This document shows positions 30,820 to 37,931 of a DNA stretch of 64,000 nucleotides, piece by piece (position 1 is the first letter of the stretch; each line of letters opens with the position of its first letter). The translations under genes were made by a program, and so were the position numbers. Location: contig JAHQJS010000006.1 of the NCBI GenBank assembly GCA_019057385.1, positions 837,038 to 901,037 of the forward strand, read 5' to 3'. Source of the stretch: Candidatus Borrarchaeum weybense (lineage in GTDB: Archaea > Asgardarchaeota > Sifarchaeia > Borrarchaeales > Borrarchaeaceae). The notes beneath the pieces were generated by a model that saw only the letters and a program-made list of their open reading frames with translations, had not been told where the DNA came from and searched no databases.

Positions 30820-31815
30820 ATGAGCTACTTTGAAGTCACCCCAGACATTGTACGTGTAGTAGGCGATGAGTCTATAGAAGACGAAATTAACGCCTGTTAC
30901 ATCATATTCGATAGTGAAATCGCAATAATAGACTCTGGAACACCCCAAACTCCCAAAAACGATATTTTGAACTGTATTGGGGACTATGGAAGAAACGCAG
31001 AGGATGTCGCTTACATTTTAACAACACACGAACACTACGATCATTTTGGTGCTCATGCGTGGTTGAAAAAGAAAACTAACGCTAAGATAGTTGCTCATCA
31101 AAAAGCAGAAGCGACACTTTCAAATCCCAAAAAATTAAGTACAGATCATTATATGCTCGGAAAGAGCGATAAATTTATGCTTTCCTTCTATGGCTCACCC
31201 ACTGATCGTTTACATGCTTGTAATGTTGATCAAACCGTCGAGGATGGCGATACAATATCTTTTGGAAATATTGATTTAGAAGTTATCTACACAGGTGGAC
31301 ATTGTGCGGGACATGTCTTCTACTATGAGCCACGAAGTAAAGCGATTTTTATTGGCGATGAAGCATTGATGTATCCTGGAGATAGTTATAAGTATTATAT
31401 CGATTTCACGGGTGATGCGTCAAGGCGATTCAAAGCATTAAAAGGGTTACTTAACATGAATTGGAAATTGTTATGCCCAATTCACGATGAGGCGTATATG
31501 AAAACCGATGGGATGGAAATGTTGAGAATGGCAATTGACGGGCACAAGCAATGGAATCAAACTATTATCGATGTATTAAATGAATATGGAAAAGAGATGT
31601 CAACAGGTAAACTAGCCAGAGAAGCGGAGGAAAGAATGGGCATCTCATGGGGACCTCAAATGAGCCGATTAATCGACCATTCCACAGTATATATGCATCT
31701 CTTAGCGCTGAAAAAGGCTGGTAAGGTTGACGGAAGAGGCGAATACGATAAAGCAAGATGGAAATTATCAGCAGAAGCACTTTTGGAAGAATTTGACTCA
31801 GAATTAGCATTCTAA
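30820..31815 (+). CDS. MBL-fold metallo-hydrolase with C-terminal winged helix
   Basis: IDSG, THEHYDH, GHCAGH, IGD; GGAGG RBS before 30820. Confidence 0.88.
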   Translation: MSYFEVTPDIVRVVGDESIEDEINACYIIFDSEIAIIDSGTPQTPKNDILNCIGDYGRNAEDVAYILTTHEHYDHFGAHAWLKKKTNAKIVAHQKAEATLSNPKKLSTDHYMLGKSDKFMLSFYGSPTDRLHACNVDQTVEDGDTISFGNIDLEVIYTGGHCAGHVFYYEPRSKAIFIGDEALMYPGDSYKYYIDFTGDASRRFKALKGLLNMNWKLLCPIHDEAYMKTDGMEMLRMAIDGHKQWNQTIIDVLNEYGKEMSTGKLAREAEERMGISWGPQMSRLIDHSTVYMHLLALKKAGKVDGRGEYDKARWKLSAEALLEEFDSELAF

Positions 31816-32494
31816 ACAATTCACAAAAATTGACACACTTTTTTTTAATAGAAAATACAGATTTTCTTCCCATTGCTACAGATTTTCTTTCAATTGTGAT
31901 GATGAATTAAGATTAATTTAGAAACAAACTTTGAAAAGCTTTAAAAACCAATGATCAACCAATTCCGCTTACCATATATTATTAGGTGAATAAAATTCAG
32001 GTCACAGAACATATTCATGCTATAAAGATCCCTTTTCAAATAAGGACTAAATTGGGTACAGTCGATCGATTCGTTTACGATAACTAAGCAAGAAAGCACC
32101 ACAGCTTCATCGTGGTGATGAATTGCGGTAGATGTGTATGTTCACTTTCATCAGGGGGTCTGTTAACATTTAATACTGGTGTGCCTTACATATTGTGATG
32201 ACTATCTAGTGGCAGGCAGCAAGGCAGGCAGGGAGAGCTACATACACAACTAAGACTTGTGGTAGAGTCACAACTCAGACTATGTTATCTGCTGCATTCG
32301 GAGGGATACTACGCACACTTGAAACAAAGGTACATACTCCATTAGAGTGCAGTCGATAACATTGAGAGCGTTTGCATCATCTACGGCAGGCTGGAAATTG
32401 ACGCCTGTAAAGTTGAGCCATCCGTACACTAGAAGCCTGAGACCCTCATCACCTCACAATCTTCAATCGACGACGAGGAGGAGGAGCACATCAT

Positions 32495-33778
32495 ATGATC
32501 GGTTCCAAAAATGAAGCCATCAAGGCCAGTTTGAAAGCCACCAAAGCGCGACGCATGCACCAGAGCTGCCGGGTGTTCATGGTCAAACTAGACAAGTCGC
32601 ATCTTAATACGGAAACGCTACATCATCTAAGGATGCTGTTTCTGGAGGCTAAATGGCTGTACAACCATATCCTGGGCCAGCCTAATGTGTTTGAGATGGA
32701 CTATAAACTCTCAGCAGTACCTGTCAAAGTGAAAGACACGTTTGAACTCCGTCACCTGAGCCAGTTATCCTCACATATGAAACAAAGTTTGATTACGCGG
32801 ACCAGGGATAATATTCGAGGGTTGGCACGCTTAAAAGAACACGGGCGAAACATTGGCAGCCTCAAATTCAAGAGTCGTGTCGATTCAATCCCCTTGAAAC
32901 AATACGGCAATACCTATCGCCTACTGAATGCTAAGTATCTCAGAATACAAGGCATCACACAACAACTACGGGTCAATGGCTTAGCACAAATTCCTCGTGG
33001 AAGTGAGCTGGCGAATGCCACCCTAATTCAGAGACATGGTGACTATTATGTGGCCATTACTACCTATCAGGTGAAGGAACAAAAAACACCGCCACCCGAC
33101 AAAACGGTGGGCATTGATTTCGGTCTGAAAACGCAATTGACGCTTTCAGACGGGATCGCTATCCGATACTCGATCCTCCTAAGCCTCAGCAAACGCCTCA
33201 GAAAACTACATCAGCAGTTAAGCAGACAACAGTATCGCAGCAACAACTGGTATCACACTAGACGCCAACTGGAAAAAGCCTATGCCACTCTCAATAATAT
33301 CAAGACAGATATCAAGAACAAACTAGTCCACTATCTACAGGCGACGTATGGAATCGTCTGCTATCAGGATGAGAACCTCAAAGCTTGGCAACGATTATGG
33401 GGCAGTAAAATCTTATCAACGGCACTCGGAGGGATCATACGCACACTTGAAACAAAGGTGCAGACTCCGATTAAAGTCGATAGGTTTTTCCCTTCCACCA
33501 AAACCTGTTCGCGCTGCGGGAACATCCGGGAAATAGGATTGGATGAACGAGTCTATATCTGTCCAGTCTGTAGGTTAGTGATTGACAGAGACTTCAATTC
33601 AAGTGTTAATCTAGAACACGAAGGGTTAACACAACAAGTGGTACCTACGGGACGTAGGGATGTTAAGCCTGTGGAGACTGAATCCTCTACTATGGCATCG
33701 CTGGAATACTTAAATGGTATTCCCTATGTGATAGCAAGTTCGGTCGTCGAAGCAGGAAGCCTCACAGCTTTAGCGTGA
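32495..33778 (+). CDS. tnpB: TnpB RNA-guided nuclease family protein
   Basis: RuvC-I VGIDFG, RuvC-II region YQDENL, Zn finger STKTCSRCG...CPVC, RuvC-III DRDFNSS. Confidence 0.95.
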   Translation: MIGSKNEAIKASLKATKARRMHQSCRVFMVKLDKSHLNTETLHHLRMLFLEAKWLYNHILGQPNVFEMDYKLSAVPVKVKDTFELRHLSQLSSHMKQSLITRTRDNIRGLARLKEHGRNIGSLKFKSRVDSIPLKQYGNTYRLLNAKYLRIQGITQQLRVNGLAQIPRGSELANATLIQRHGDYYVAITTYQVKEQKTPPPDKTVGIDFGLKTQLTLSDGIAIRYSILLSLSKRLRKLHQQLSRQQYRSNNWYHTRRQLEKAYATLNNIKTDIKNKLVHYLQATYGIVCYQDENLKAWQRLWGSKILSTALGGIIRTLETKVQTPIKVDRFFPSTKTCSRCGNIREIGLDERVYICPVCRLVIDRDFNSSVNLEHEGLTQQVVPTGRRDVKPVETESSTMASLEYLNGIPYVIASSVVEAGSLTALA

Positions 33779-33788
33779 GGTAGTTCAC
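33641..33788 (+). ncRNA. TnpB omegaRNA (reRNA/sotRNA) 3' scaffold overlapping the end of tnpB; guide is the flank after 33788
   Basis: CCTACG-GGA-CGTAGG hairpin, AAGCCTGTGGAG, GAAGCAGGAAGCC and terminal hairpin, all retained in the mini-elements. Confidence 0.75.
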
Positions 33789-34621
33789 GTATATCTTATT
33801 TATGACAAAGAGATCTATCTCATCGATAGTGGGGTTGCCTCTTCAGAGTTGGTGATTTTTGATTATATAAAGAAGACTGGTCGTGCCCCTGAAGAAATCT
33901 CTCAGGTTATTTTAACTCATTCTCATCCAGATCATATTGGAGCAGTACAAGCCATAAAAAAAGCATCAGGCTGTACAGTTGCAGCGCATTTAGGTGAAAA
34001 ATCATGGATCGAAGATATTGAACAACAACATAGGGATCGTCCGATCCCAAATTTCCATTCCATTGTGGGGGGATCTGTTAATATTGATAAAATTCTTGAA
34101 GATGGAGATGTTCTAGAATTAGGGGATATCAGATTAGAGGTGTTCCACACACCAGGCCATTCAAAAGGATCAATCTCGCTCTTGCTTCACGAAGATAAGG
34201 CACTTCTCGCTGGAGATGTAATTCCTCTCGCTGGAAGTATCCCTATCTATGAGGATGTCTTGGCATCTGTTAGATCTATCAAGAAATTGAGGAGTATTGA
34301 GGGTCTTGATGTCCTGCTTACCTCCTGGGATAACCCTAGGAAGGGCAATGAAGTTTATCGAATGATGGATGAAGGATTAAGCTATCTTCAACGCATTCAT
34401 GAGATTGTCATCAAGATTTCAGGTGAGACTACTACACTCACGTCAGAGGAATGGAGCAAACAAATTCTAACAGAATTGGGCCTACCCCCGATAGTTGCTA
34501 ATCCTCTCATCATTAAATCACTCAAAGCACATTTAAAGGCGCGTGATCATCAGAATTTACTGCAGAACTAATATCAGACTCTACCCGTGTTGTAAATTTC
34601 CCAAATTGAGAGCTGTTTATT

Positions 34622-34921
34622 ATGTCAGTGTATCTAATAATCGAAATCAAAGTCAAGGACAATGAATTGTATTCCAAATATGTAGAAAAAGTACCCGAAG
34701 TCATTGAAAGTTACGGTGGTCGATATTTGATCAGAGGTGGAGAAGTAACTTCATTCTCAGGCAATTGGTATCCCGAAAGGATTATTTTAATAGAATTTGA
34801 AACAATTGAGCAGTTACAGAACTGCTTTCAATCAGATGAATATCTTAAACTTTCATCGCTTCGGAAGCAGTCGACTATTTCGAAAGCAATTATAGTTGAG
34901 GGTTACGTATCGCCTGAATAG
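34622..34921 (+). CDS. DUF1330 family protein
   Basis: YGGRYLIRGG, ILIEFE, SDEY....LR pattern. Confidence 0.85.
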   Translation: MSVYLIIEIKVKDNELYSKYVEKVPEVIESYGGRYLIRGGEVTSFSGNWYPERIILIEFETIEQLQNCFQSDEYLKLSSLRKQSTISKAIIVEGYVSPE

Positions 34922-35090
34922 TCAGCAAACTCTCAATTTTTTACGGTTCACTGCTAAACTGTGTATAGCGAGATGTTAATAAGAGATATATGGCGAAAAG
35001 TTTATACGTACTAGAGTTGTTGTATAAAATCTACCTGCAAGCAATTACAGTTGCATCCGCAGGTTGCTAGAACGCCCCTTAAAGTTGGTA

Positions 35091-35560
35091 CCCCTGGTAG
35101 CTCAATCTGGTAGTATCCCTAGGTAATCCTAGGTGACCCCAAGAGCGGCGGGCTGTAGTTAGCATTCATGAAAATAAAGATGTATGAATGTCAGCCCTTA
35201 CGAGTAGCTAAGCAAGAAAGCATCAGTGCTTCAGCGTAGATGAATTGCGTGAGTATGGATTCACTTTCATCACTTATAGAGGAGTCCCCCTAATAGTTAT
35301 AAGGTGGTATGACAAAGAGAGTGACGGCAATTGGAGGGATAATACGCACACTTGTCTACAAGGTGCATACTCCGATGCCATCAAGATGGTTAACAGTACC
35401 TACGGGGCGTAGGGAATTTAAGCCTGTGGAGATACGACCTCCGTAACCCGTCAAGGGGATCGAGTCCGTCGTTGAAGCAGGAAGCCTCATTGCTTTAGCA
35501 CGAGGTAGCTCACTCGCAGATACCCGTTGGTTGCTGGTTCAAATCCGGCCCAGGGGACCA
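35091..35560 (+). tRNA. tRNA-Tyr(GTA) with two introns (D-loop, about 35113-35142; canonical 37/38, 35159-35521) and encoded CCA
   Basis: Spliced sequence CCCCTGGTAGCTCAATCTGGTAGAGCGGCGGGCTGTAG^ACCCGTTGGTTGCTGGTTCAAATCCGGCCCAGGGGACCA folds into a full cloverleaf: acceptor CCCCTGG/CCAGGGG, anticodon GTA at 35155-35157, T-arm GCTGG-TTCAAAT-CCGGC. Splice helix CTGT/GCAG with AG^T and AT^A bulges. Confidence 0.93.
35202..35513 (+). mobile_element. Family A IS200/IS605 omegaRNA mini-element inside the tRNA-Tyr anticodon-loop intron
   Basis: CTTAC|GAGTAGCTAAGCAAGAAAGC... left end and ...GAAGCAGGAAGCCTCATTGCTTTAGCACGAGGTAGCTCAC right end; colinear with the copy at 1724-2038. Confidence 0.92.
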
Positions 35561-35576
35561 TCTACTTATTTTAAAT

Positions 35577-35598
35577 CAGGTTCTCTTAAGAGAACCTG
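35577..35598. other. Perfect 22-bp palindrome just downstream of the tRNA
   Basis: CAGGTTCTCTTAAGAGAACCTG is its own reverse complement. Confidence 0.7.
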
Positions 35599-35718
35599 CA
35601 TCTTAGTTTTAATCAGCCCTTTGCAAGCATCCTTTTTCAAGAGATTATAGAAAAAAACAATTTTTTTATACTCAGCTGTCTGTTATGAATATGAGTGACA
35701 AAAAGAGGTAATCTAAAA

Positions 35719-35976
35719 GTCAACTACCCCATCCTTACGGGTAGGGGCTTGTTCACACAAGTCTCTTAGTTGATTAGAGGGCATCTCATCTTGAGATGCA
35801 GCAGTTGTTTAGGTCATGACACCCTGGGGTGCTCCACTAGCCCCCTGCTCTGTCGTCGGTGGTTAAAAGTTCTGAGGGGTAGGAACGGTGCTGCCGACCT
35901 AATAAGCCTTTACAACAGTCTCGAAGTGGACCAACTCCCTAGTGTTGGGAGCGACGGGACTTGAGAGTACCCGTCA
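35719..35976 (+). ncRNA. HEARO / IscB omegaRNA scaffold
   Basis: GTCAACT...AGTTGAT closing stem, GTCATGACACCCTGGGGTGCTCCACTAGCCCC..GCTCTGTCG, GGTTAAAAGTTCTGAGGGGTAGGAACGGTG, CTCGAAGTGGA (complementary to TCCACT), terminal hairpins; recognised from memory of the HEARO consensus. Confidence 0.85.
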
Positions 35977-36079
35977 TTAAAACACCGCCTCCTGTCCTCA
36001 TAGAAGGGGTGGTTAAATGAACCTTCCCTTCTCTCCTCTCCGTCTTAATAAAGTGACGGAGTCTACTTGAGGTGTAAAA
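35719..36079 (+). mobile_element. Non-autonomous IscB-type IS200/IS605 element consisting of a stand-alone omegaRNA
   Basis: Begins GTCAACTACCCC-hairpin-GGGGCTTG; ends with a CTCCGTC..GACGGAG hairpin + TCTACTTGAGGTGTAAAA directly before ATGA; no iscB ORF. Confidence 0.8.
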
Positions 36080-36622
36080 ATGAGTTACTGCCCTTATTGT
36101 GGCGAAAGTATTAAGCCATCCGATTTACGTGACAATCAATGTCCTAACTGTGGTGCTTATTTGGATACTGAACCGCTCGCGACACCCCCAACACCCCCAA
36201 CACCTCCACTACCTCCACCATCACAGCCTACTACAACTTATGCCCCTCCCCCACCGCCAGCTGTCATCCCAAAAGCAGGTAGACCAATAGGAGTTAGTTT
36301 TATTGCTATTATAACTATCCTCGAAGGCATTGTATTTCTGGGTACTGGTGGAATTATTGCATTGGCGGGAGGAGTAGTAGATGAACTCTGGATTGCTGCA
36401 CTCGGTGTTTTTATCTTGATCTTTGGTCTAATCTTCATAGCGCTTGGGTCTGGTCTTTGGAATTTGCGGTCTTGGGCATGGTGGCTAACTATCATCTTTG
36501 AAATCCTTGGAATCATTGGCACTTTGATTTTAACATTAGCTATTGGAGCTGCCTTTATTCTGACTGTTATCTCAGCGATTGTCTTGGTATATCTGTTGAC
36601 AGTGAAGAAATACTTCCATTAA
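36080..36622 (+). CDS. Zinc-ribbon, proline-rich, four-TM membrane protein
   Basis: CPYCG..CPNCG, poly-Pro linker, RPIGV followed by TM helices, GLWNLRSWAW. Confidence 0.82.
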   Translation: MSYCPYCGESIKPSDLRDNQCPNCGAYLDTEPLATPPTPPTPPLPPPSQPTTTYAPPPPPAVIPKAGRPIGVSFIAIITILEGIVFLGTGGIIALAGGVVDELWIAALGVFILIFGLIFIALGSGLWNLRSWAWWLTIIFEILGIIGTLILTLAIGAAFILTVISAIVLVYLLTVKKYFH

Positions 36623-36689
36623 TCTTATTTTTTAAAAACGGTATCCTTTTTCTCAATTTTTTTTCAAGAATTCTGAAAGGAAATATTTT

Positions 36690-36932
36690 TCAGCCAAAAG
36701 TTTCGCGAAGAATCTTCATTGCTTTATCGATAGTTTTATCCTCTAATTCCTTAGCTTTAGCATAATGTTCTTCGCAGAACCATTCTGCATATGGTGGATG
36801 CCCAACCATTCCCTTTTTTTCCATCTTGGTGTCCCATTCAATGTCTGAAGGTCGTTTCTTAAAATAAACGAGCCCACCTTTTTCGAGATCTAGAAAATCT
36901 TTGTCACAGATAGCACAAATTGGAGGTCTCAT
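36690..36932 (-). CDS. Small putative Zn-binding protein
   Basis: MRPPICAIC...GHPP..EWFCEEH; AGGTG RBS before 36932. Confidence 0.7.
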   Translation of the reverse strand: MRPPICAICDKDFLDLEKGGLVYFKKRPSDIEWDTKMEKKGMVGHPPYAEWFCEEHYAKAKELEDKTIDKAMKILRETFG

Positions 36933-37022
36933 ATCAACACCTTTTGAATCAAAATAATAAAAATATACCATGAAAATAGCATCGATCGATTGTTAAAAGA
37001 TATTCTCACGTTTGATTCAACG

Positions 37023-37931
37023 CTATGGTTTTAAAATTTTTCTCCTTATCTTTTCTCTGATTTTTAGACGTTTTTCAGCCACTAGGAGTCCAATAGCAAT
37101 TGCTACAGTCACAGCTATAGTAATTCCAATCGTTAGATATGGTGCCATTTCCCACAAATCCAACAATGTGAATGGAATCGGTCTCATAATATAGACTGGA
37201 AACGCTCTTGTTTGACTGAGACTTTGGTCATCCTGAGTCCAAGTTATCTGAAGTTCTAGTTCTCTTTCGCCGGTAGCTACGCTTGGACTTATGTCGATTT
37301 CAAAGAATGCAGACACCGTTTCATTTGCTTTCACGTTTCCTAGGTAATCCACAATTTTTCCAGAAATATCGTTTCCTCCCCTTAATTGGACTGTTACATC
37401 TTCAGCTTCTACGCTTGCATTGTTTAGAATCCACACTTGCAATTCTATGTCATTCTCGCCAGCTGTTACGGTGTATGGTTCAACTTTCACAAATTCCCAT
37501 TGAACTTTGTCTGAAATTCTGAATGGAATTGATACTGATTCTTCCTCATCGTCACCAAATTCGATTTTGCATTTGATGTTATAACTTCCAGCTTCCGCGT
37601 AATCAACAATATCCACGTAAAAAGTTAATTGAACGCTTTGCTCTGCCGAAATCTCATTGAAATATTGCTCTGTTGCGCCTTCATAACTTGGCAATAGGAA
37701 TTTCGGTAATTTCAATGAGATATCCACATCTCTAGCCCTTCTGGTGCCATTATTTTGAATTTCTGCGTTGATCTGAACGTCTCTATTCCCTGGGAAGACT
37801 TTTATTGGACTGTATGACGATTTTAGTAGAACAAAATCTGGATCATCAACTTGACTAGAAGGGGAACAGTAACAAGATAAAACAATAAGTGCTGTTAAGA
37901 GCGCTATCGAAAGATATTTCTGCTTATTCAT
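37023..37931 (-). CDS. COG1361 S-layer/CARDB-like membrane-anchored protein
   Basis: Signal peptide, two Ig-like repeats, C-terminal TM + basic tail; paralog of 37954-38823. Confidence 0.75.
   Translation of the reverse strand: MNKQKYLSIALLTALIVLSCYCSPSSQVDDPDFVLLKSSYSPIKVFPGNRDVQINAEIQNNGTRRARDVDISLKLPKFLLPSYEGATEQYFNEISAEQSVQLTFYVDIVDYAEAGSYNIKCKIEFGDDEEESVSIPFRISDKVQWEFVKVEPYTVTAGENDIELQVWILNNASVEAEDVTVQLRGGNDISGKIVDYLGNVKANETVSAFFEIDISPSVATGERELELQITWTQDDQSLSQTRAFPVYIMRPIPFTLLDLWEMAPYLTIGITIAVTVAIAIGLLVAEKRLKIREKIRRKILKP

Follow-up and report, generated by a model that had tools for sequence, protein, structure and literature searches.

A TnpB-related mini-element with a guide-RNA-like right end inside the tRNA-Tyr intron of an Asgard archaeon

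Bacterial IStrons are group I introns fused to an IS200/IS605 or IS607 element. They place an IS605-family element, complete with TnpB guide RNA, within an intron, so that the insertion is spliced out of the RNA; because splicing takes place at or next to the right end, it competes with guide production (10.1101/2023.11.20.567912; PMC4227781). Among archaeal bulge-helix-bulge (BHB) introns, those of rRNA genes may contain the gene of a LAGLIDADG homing endonuclease, giving a long intron that EndA removes and a selfish element able to target intron-less alleles (PMC13565253, citing Dalgaard et al. 1993), and the 37/38 BHB intron of tRNA-Trp holds a second structured RNA, a C/D box small RNA (sRNA) released by EndA (PMC12558985). 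Derivatives of IS200/IS605 resembling palindrome-associated transposable elements (PATE) or miniature inverted-repeat transposable elements (MITE), together with stand-alone omegaRNA cassettes, have hairpins at both ends and no transposase gene, insert 3' of a fixed tetranucleotide without duplication, and occur in many copies sharing the ends of tnpB elements. Here we describe a 312-nucleotide (nt) mini-element of this kind in the intron of the tRNA-Tyr(GTA) gene of Candidatus Borrarchaeum weybense (Asgardarchaeota; assembly GCA_019057385.1, here G000). The locus lies in a stretch of 64,000 nt on contig JAHQJS010000006.1 (positions 837,038 to 901,037, forward strand), referred to as the window, and coordinates given without a contig name are those of the window.

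The arrangement is that of a transposon nested in an intron and is comparable with IStrons and with BHB introns that encode a homing endonuclease. IStrons, however, bring their own ribozyme and move as a unit into many sites, whereas here the intron is a pre-existing host intron that would be removed by the protein EndA, and one copy is known. Homing-endonuclease introns encode a protein nuclease and lie in rRNA genes; by contrast, the intron described here carries a guide-RNA scaffold alone, the nuclease would act in trans, and homing is putative. The C/D box sRNA has a conserved host function, whereas the passenger here is a recent, lineage-specific mobile element. As for the PATE- and MITE-like elements, the literature searched reports none in an intron of an essential single-copy tRNA gene. 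To our knowledge, a conflict between splicing and a transposon guide is otherwise known only for the self-splicing IStrons. We favor the reading, with a probability of about three in four, that the element landed by chance in a pre-existing tRNA-Tyr intron and is a tolerated, near-neutral passenger, not a specialized homing intron.

An initial annotation of the window, made from its letters alone, knew of no prior description of such a locus, and our full-text search of the literature likewise turned up no report of an archaeal tRNA intron with a transposon or an omegaRNA in it. Circular omegaRNAs of haloarchaea were reported in 2025, without a BHB motif or tRNA context (PMC12558985), and a 2026 review of obligate mobile element-guided activity (OMEGA) systems mentions, for BHB introns, protein homing endonucleases alone. 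A 2026 preprint census of Asgard tRNA introns tested mobile elements as an arrival route, found no link and left arrival open (10.64898/2026.10.13.758758).

A precisely bounded insertion in a 51-nt intron

The gene, its intron and the insertion are laid out as follows.

35091–35557, + strand: tRNA-Tyr(GTA) gene, from the acceptor end through discriminator A73 (C1-G72 and A73 read from the sequence), followed by an encoded CCA at 35558–35560
35159–35521, + strand: anticodon-loop (37/38) intron of 363 nt, composed of 43 native nt, the 312-nt element and 8 native nt
35198–35201, + strand: TTAC target and transposon-adjacent motif (TAM), directly 5' of the element and the single TTAC in the 51-nt intron
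35202–35513, + strand: non-autonomous IS200/IS605 element (MITE/PATE-like) of the 315-nt size class, 312 nt long, in the same orientation as the tRNA; repeat families D1, D3, D7 and D10 match 32079–33788
35329–35513, + strand: omegaRNA-scaffold-like right half of the element, with hairpin A, a CCTACGG/CGTAGG hairpin, a RAGATH-18-like stem and a terminal GCCTC/GAGGT hairpin

The extents of the intron and of the element behind TTAC had been proposed in the initial annotation, and both coordinates and motifs hold in the sequence. The element stands directly 3' of TTAC without target duplication and is followed by eight native intron bases, TCGCAGAT (35514–35521). It had been said to share its ends with the tnpB element that ends 1.4 kb upstream (32079–33788); repeat analysis confirmed this, with identities of 85–92% at the two ends, and together with blastn against the whole assembly placed the element in a repeat family. 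It is an IS200/IS605 mini-element with an omegaRNA-like part at its right end. The first 35 nt are 85% identical to the left end of the tnpB element, and the right half corresponds in three blocks, at 71–92%, to the 3' end of tnpB and the right end of that element, 35315–35513 aligning to 33410–33788. The same ends are also common to tnpB elements at C5:22778–24292 and C6:305858–307296. The genome contains 55 right ends of this family, all ending in ...GAGGTAG(C/T)TCAC, and TTAC lies exactly before 34 of the 49 left ends, with about nine more at a one-base offset. Pairing the ends gave 13 copies of ~204 nt, 20 copies of ~315 nt and full-length elements of 1.4–1.7 kb, for a total of ~33 mini-elements and ~37 paired copies.

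In place of terminal inverted repeats, the consensus fold of 20 mini-elements has subterminal hairpins, one at the left end and four in the right half, the last of which (GCCTC/GAGGT) is beside the flank. The tRNA copy keeps this scaffold at 94.1% identity to the family consensus (family mean 94.2%), while its left and middle parts are at 80% and 67%, and its left-end hairpin is weakened by a 2-nt deletion and a substitution. As a whole it shares 84.5% identity with the family consensus and 87.7% with its nearest copy, a divergence that we do not read as age because the family has sub-lineages. The right end is 82–88% identical to the right ends of the full-length elements. Among the 64 predicted pairs, four were doubly changed (covariation term −0.03), in copies too alike for covariation to inform. 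The sole Rfam match to the right half was RAGATH-18, which stayed below the gathering score of 44.9 with 24.7 bits (E 0.26).

Empty alleles were sought in 40 related genomes, using the 5' exon and the first part of the intron as query. The locus was found in two same-genus genomes, and in both the exon-to-exon distance is 312 nt shorter. A scan of public metagenome contigs with the 18 bases ending in TTAC added six further tRNA-Tyr contigs, all six of them empty. The 51-nt intron that the initial annotation had predicted from the filled allele therefore exists, in two congeners and six metagenome contigs, exactly 312 nt shorter than the filled one. The empty alleles read ...CAGCCCTTAC|TCGCAGATACCCGT..., with a TTAC|TCGCAG joint that shows neither duplication nor scar. 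The empty contigs represent several lineages: their flanks differ, the acceptor stem carries a compensatory T:A to C:G change, and the middle of an insert in the D-loop is variable. Filled allele and congeners have identical exons. The eight empty loci, the strongest of our results, indicate that the 51-nt intron is ancestral and that the 312-nt element was gained in the G000 lineage. Precise loss elsewhere could formally be invoked, since IS200/IS605 excision is seamless, but is less parsimonious than gain. The locus provides a natural before-and-after pair, with an intron of 51 nt in eight relatives and of 363 nt here and a precisely bounded transposon as the sole difference, and a direct case of a mobile element enlarging a BHB intron of an Asgard archaeon while leaving the gene unscarred. 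It is a case of growth of an existing intron, not of the creation of a new one, and in this form bears on the census of intron arrival (10.64898/2026.10.13.758758).

Misassembly, a concern already raised in the initial annotation, would mean that a repeat copy was misplaced into the tRNA gene. The element is indeed multi-copy, and contig-based depth over it reaches thousands, but contigs with unique flanks bridge both filled junctions in runs X1 and X4 and the left one in run X3. Logan contigs of run X1 cover 34950–35353 and 35459–35650 with zero differences and at a depth equal to that of the flanks, and no contig skipping the element was found in this run. Run X3 comes from a 2015 study; run X4, from a marsh in 2025, yields contigs across each of the two filled junctions as well as one in which exactly 312 nt are skipped, so that both alleles occur together. 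Overall, the filled allele recurs in runs from 2015, 2021 and 2025. The tRNA copy is moreover at least 12% divergent from each of the others and therefore cannot be a collapsed duplicate. An assembly artefact is hardly credible.

Predicted splicing of the enlarged intron

The host gene has the archaeal identity marks C1-G72 and A73. Its acceptor strand CCCCTGG pairs with CCAGGGG, the D-stem GCTC/GAGC is split by an insert, GCGGG (35148–35152) pairs with CCCGT (35523–35527) in the anticodon stem, the anticodon GTA (35155–35157) stands in a CT-GTA-G...A loop, and the T-arm reads GCTGG-TTCAAAT-CCGGC. There are two inserts, one of ~30 nt in the D-loop and one of 363 nt between G37 (35158) and A38 (35522), and because of them the locus was called as a tRNA neither by ARAGORN nor by the Rfam tRNA model. 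Once both inserts were removed in silico, ARAGORN reported tRNA-Tyr(gta) at essentially any reasonable D-loop boundary. An intron-tolerant scan of our own, which sought a T-arm with a complementary acceptor stem, recovered the locus as a 467-nt gene and as the sole non-viral candidate with C1...G72 and A73. A second intact tRNA-Tyr gene, which the initial annotation had considered, was not found: ARAGORN, Rfam and the intron-tolerant scan detected no other host-type tRNA-Tyr in the assembly.

The core parts of the splice motif, described beforehand as intact, are all present. CTGT (35153–35156) pairs with GCAG (35516–35519) in a central helix of four pairs, one of them G-U, and the bulges are AG^T (35157–35159) and AT^A (35520–35522). 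A 4-bp central helix with two 3-nt bulges on opposite strands, each cut behind its second base, is what is expected of an archaeal BHB. This core is the same in filled and empty alleles, the nearest change on the 3' side lying 11 nt from the cut (TCAC vs TTAC). The hairpin GCATTCAT/ATGAATGT, proposed as the 51-nt intron's own, also folds as claimed.

These features fit a simple course of events. The 312-nt element, with its left-end hairpin and a right end bearing the TnpB omegaRNA scaffold, transposed into the single TTAC of the 51-nt intron, at a point in the intron's loop 8 nt short of the 3' splice site. Because this site spares the anticodon stem, the 4-bp central helix and both 3-nt bulges, EndA should still cut at G37^T and T^A38. 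A broad-specificity (alpha-beta)2 EndA would make the cuts, a ligase would join the exons, and the element would leave with the 363-nt intron. The assembly contains two separate tRNA_int_endo genes, with matches of 99 and 77 bits. The two genes occupy regions of C4 (663774–664019) and C5 (195898–196158). Asgard EndA is reported to be an (alpha-beta)2 enzyme whose L1 loop gives broad specificity, with relaxed motifs accepted (PMC5829648), and by this published assignment the EndA of this genome would be of the type that accepts relaxed motifs. The short and long introns could serve as a substrate pair for how long or structured an intron (alpha-beta)2 EndA accepts. We infer that the 363-nt intron is still spliced, from the presence of a sole host-type tRNA-Tyr and of the filled allele in three independent runs; with a single such gene, removal of the element with the intron is the most economical reading. 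The sole RNA contig, from metatranscriptome run X18 (35000–35193), is uninformative on splicing of the filled allele, because it carries the C35073A variant of the empty-allele congeners (it is like that of congener G004) and ends inside the intron.

Several observations weigh against a spliced and tolerated passenger. BHB scoring of the 37/38 intron gave H=4, h=6 (an exon helix of 6 bp, that of the anticodon stem) and h'=0, so that the motif is not a strict hBHBh' but a relaxed hBH/BHL form; the outer helix h' is absent in filled and empty alleles alike. RNAfold favored an alternative helix, GGGCTG/CAGCCC, over the BHB by 3.3 kcal/mol in the empty allele and by 3.9 kcal/mol in the filled one, penalties so nearly equal that the element leaves the BHB form not noticeably less favorable than in alleles that must be spliced. 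A length of 363 nt is well above that usual for archaeal tRNA introns, and tolerance is thus assumed. The intron-tolerant scan is blind to a tRNA-Tyr with introns in the T-arm or acceptor stem. Finally, a well-kept right half beside decayed left parts would also fit constraint on the RNA scaffold.

Some of these points could instead mean that the insertion inactivated the gene, the 363-nt intron being poorly or not at all removed and tyrosine being decoded by a tRNA-Tyr that is unassembled, heavily interrupted or encoded on the virus-like contig C1. The missing h' and the existence of a fold more stable than the BHB form would agree with such a loss, but the equally weak motif is found in eight of eight empty alleles, which must be spliced. 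The tRNA genes of this 8-contig assembly are hard to detect (28 by ARAGORN, 27 by Rfam), so that another gene might have escaped notice, yet the exons of the present one are undecayed and the filled allele is the sole form in run X1. As for C1, it does hold a GTA-anticodon tRNA-like sequence, called 'Tyr' by ARAGORN at C1:19738, but this candidate was rejected as a host tRNA-Tyr: its first pair is T1-A72, its D-arm is weak and its variable arm long, it reaches 27 bits where the Rfam cutoff is 29, and it sits in an intron-less tRNA array on a viral-type contig. We consider inactivation improbable.

Contig C1 (179 kb) carries intron-less tRNA arrays (e.g. C1:19436–19895) and a T4-type prohead protease domain (Peptidase_S77) in a 1235-aa protein (C1:70762–74469). 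Its content suggests a large genome of a tailed virus that was co-binned with the archaeon, and this would account for part of the 7% contamination estimate. Another ARAGORN 'Tyr', at C5:184611, was rejected as a tRNA-Thr(TGT) with an intron further downstream, and ARAGORN also calls a tRNA-Pyl in the assembly.

The smaller insert of the tRNA-Tyr gene is less well defined.

~35114–~35143, + strand: D-loop intervening sequence of ~30 nt, splitting the D-arm GCTC...GAGC, with ends uncertain by a few bases

Its BHB is of a relaxed kind, with three of four central pairs, and no clean BHB could be assigned. It occupies the identical place in all relatives, with conserved ends (…CTGGTAG and GTGACCCCAAG…), and its variable middle holds copies of the adjoining exon motif. 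One metagenome contig, L034 (Ga0114925_10294559), has an extra 32-nt insert in the T-loop, between GGTTC and AAATCC (~190–225 of the locus) and flanked by repeated AAAT, which looks like a lineage-specific third intron.

A putative guide-RNA scaffold beside a splice site

Downstream of the right end, the putative guide runs through the splice site.

35514–35533, + strand: putative guide region of 20 nt, which adjoins the right end on its 3' side and crosses the 3' splice site at 35521/35522; the guide role is inferred from TnpB biology (PMC10055086)

The mini-element appears to have the make-up of a TnpB omegaRNA, with a scaffold that combines the tnpB 3' end with the right end, and with the 3' flank as guide. 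On this ground the initial annotation had proposed an RNA-guided homing tRNA intron. The element would exploit the promoter of the tRNA and its splicing by EndA, gaining from them a platform for expression and a safe harbour, and TnpB, acting in trans with omegaRNA from the pre-tRNA, would cut element-free alleles at TTAC+TCGCAGATACCCG..., after which repair from a filled copy would spread the long intron. The predicted target is TTAC+TCGCAGATACCCGTTGGTTG.

The orientation of the element is that of the tRNA, the right-end scaffold is well kept, an apparently intact TnpB is encoded 1.4 kb upstream, and two more TnpBs of at least 74% identity are encoded in the genome, all in line with homing. 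The left-end hairpin, on the other hand, is damaged, and the identity of the right end to those of full-length elements is just 82–88%. Similarly, the exact TAM and target are found in eight of eight empty alleles, and filled and empty alleles occur together in one marsh metagenome, but the finding that eight of eight related loci are empty argues against efficient drive. TnpB homing is established for IS605, and the 3' flank of every IS605 copy is a guide for its own empty site, making RNA-guided homing generic (PMC10055086). Nothing in it is specific to this locus. Moreover, EndA would cut 8 nt past the right end, and the excised intron would thus have an 8-nt guide, TCGCAGAT, which is too short: splicing would disarm rather than deliver the guide. 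A full guide of 16–20 nt would be carried only by the unspliced precursor or by a separate internal transcript. A homing intron of this kind is unlikely in our view, though less so than inactivation of the gene.

A further, speculative idea is that the pre-tRNA also feeds working omegaRNA to TnpB. The pre-tRNA-Tyr would then be an omegaRNA precursor too, with splicing and TnpB loading in competition. If TnpB came first, it would hold a full guide reaching across the 3' splice site and could cut intron-short alleles; if EndA came first, the guide would be cut to 8 nt and the nuclease disarmed. The 363-nt form would in that case be a BHB intron that homes by RNA guidance, the archaeal equivalent of an IStron but spliced by protein, and IS200/IS605 elements might more broadly be one route by which Asgard tRNA introns grow. 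We hold this proposal to be doubtful, on a par with homing. The comparison with an IStron lacking a ribozyme, also made in the initial annotation, is apt in that no group I intron or other ribozyme family of Rfam matched in 32000–37500 at E up to 1 and that the conflict between splicing and guide parallels that of IStrons, but its reading as a strategy found no support. A TnpB guide scaffold placed 8 nt from a host splice site nevertheless raises the prospect that a host RNA-processing enzyme may gate a transposon nuclease.

Whether tRNA splicing serves these elements as a safe harbour can also be judged from how often they use it. The tRNA-Tyr copy is one of ~37 paired copies, or one instance among the 55 right ends. 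When the flanks of 37 paired copies were joined and submitted to ARAGORN, a test of low sensitivity, no tRNA spanned the insertion site of any other copy; a tRNA-Leu adjoins one full-length element. Other Asgard tRNA introns with insertion sequence ends, which the initial annotation suggested looking for, did not turn up either: a search of 400 Asgard genomes for this right end 10–40 nt upstream of a T-loop gave, with the pattern used, no second case besides G000. One further match in that search was rejected as an ordinary tRNA D-arm plus anticodon arm. Together with the eight empty loci, these counts speak against a safe-harbour strategy. The chromosome has 33,803 TTAC sites, one of them in the intron, and with ~50 surviving insertions, in harmless sites only, in an intron-rich genome, one landing in a tRNA intron is unremarkable, as expected for a passenger inserted by chance.

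The TnpB family and neighboring insertions

A potential source of a nuclease in trans is a full-length relative of the mini-element.

32079–33788, + strand: full-length tnpB-only IS200/IS605 element with related ends, preceded by TTAC at 32075–32078; absent in both congeners
32495–33778, + strand: tnpB, 427 aa, with Pfam OrfB_IS605 and Cas12f1-like_TNB and matches to the ISDra2 TnpB structures 8h1j and 8bf8 at E 4e-18

The protein has the RuvC D/E/D motifs GIDFG, QDEN and DRDFN and a CxxC...CxxC zinc finger. Three full-length TnpBs of the genome are at least 74% identical, five are at ~60%, and about a dozen are distant; close relatives occur in metagenome-assembled genomes named Candidatus Sifarchaeum and Candidatus Borrarchaeum/Borrarchaeota. 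Taken with the tRNA-Pyl call, this agrees with a host from the Sifarchaeia/Borrarchaeia group of Asgard archaea. Both congeners align unbroken across the insertion point of the tnpB element, where G004 has TTAT instead of TTAC. The flanks, 31460–32077 and 33783–34561, encode a metallo-beta-lactamase-fold sequence, and the element therefore appears to split a gene. Three places share a hairpin of ~59 nt (ATTGGAGGG...CTCC), namely the tnpB element's leader (32282–32340), the tnpB coding region (33410–33468) and the mini-element (35315–35373), which makes the leader of the full element look like a partial duplicate of its own 3' region.

A single tnpA (Y1 transposase) was found in the assembly, at C7:194191–194619, within a tnpA-tnpB element at C7:194191–195885. 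The last 37 nt of the right end of this element are 81% identical to the family right end, the remainder showing no resemblance. The 427-aa open reading frame (ORF) that follows tnpA has a TnpB-like N-terminus, yet gave no tblastn match to the TnpB of the window (E<1e-10). Judging from this partial likeness, the C7 tnpA could be the helper that moves the mini-elements.

In comparison with congener G004, the 6-kb neighborhood gained four blocks: the tnpB element, a 433-nt DUF1330 block, the mini-element and a 356-nt HEARO block. The 433-nt block (34562–34994) contains a 99-aa DUF1330 ORF (34622–34921), and both congeners have 22 nt in its place. The 356-nt block (35719–36074) contains a full-length match to HEARO, an IscB-type omegaRNA, at 35719–35935 (128 bits). 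No IscB gene follows it; the ORF that comes next, 36080–36622, encodes a zinc-ribbon/DUF7144 protein. This block is absent in G004 and present in the genome G002.

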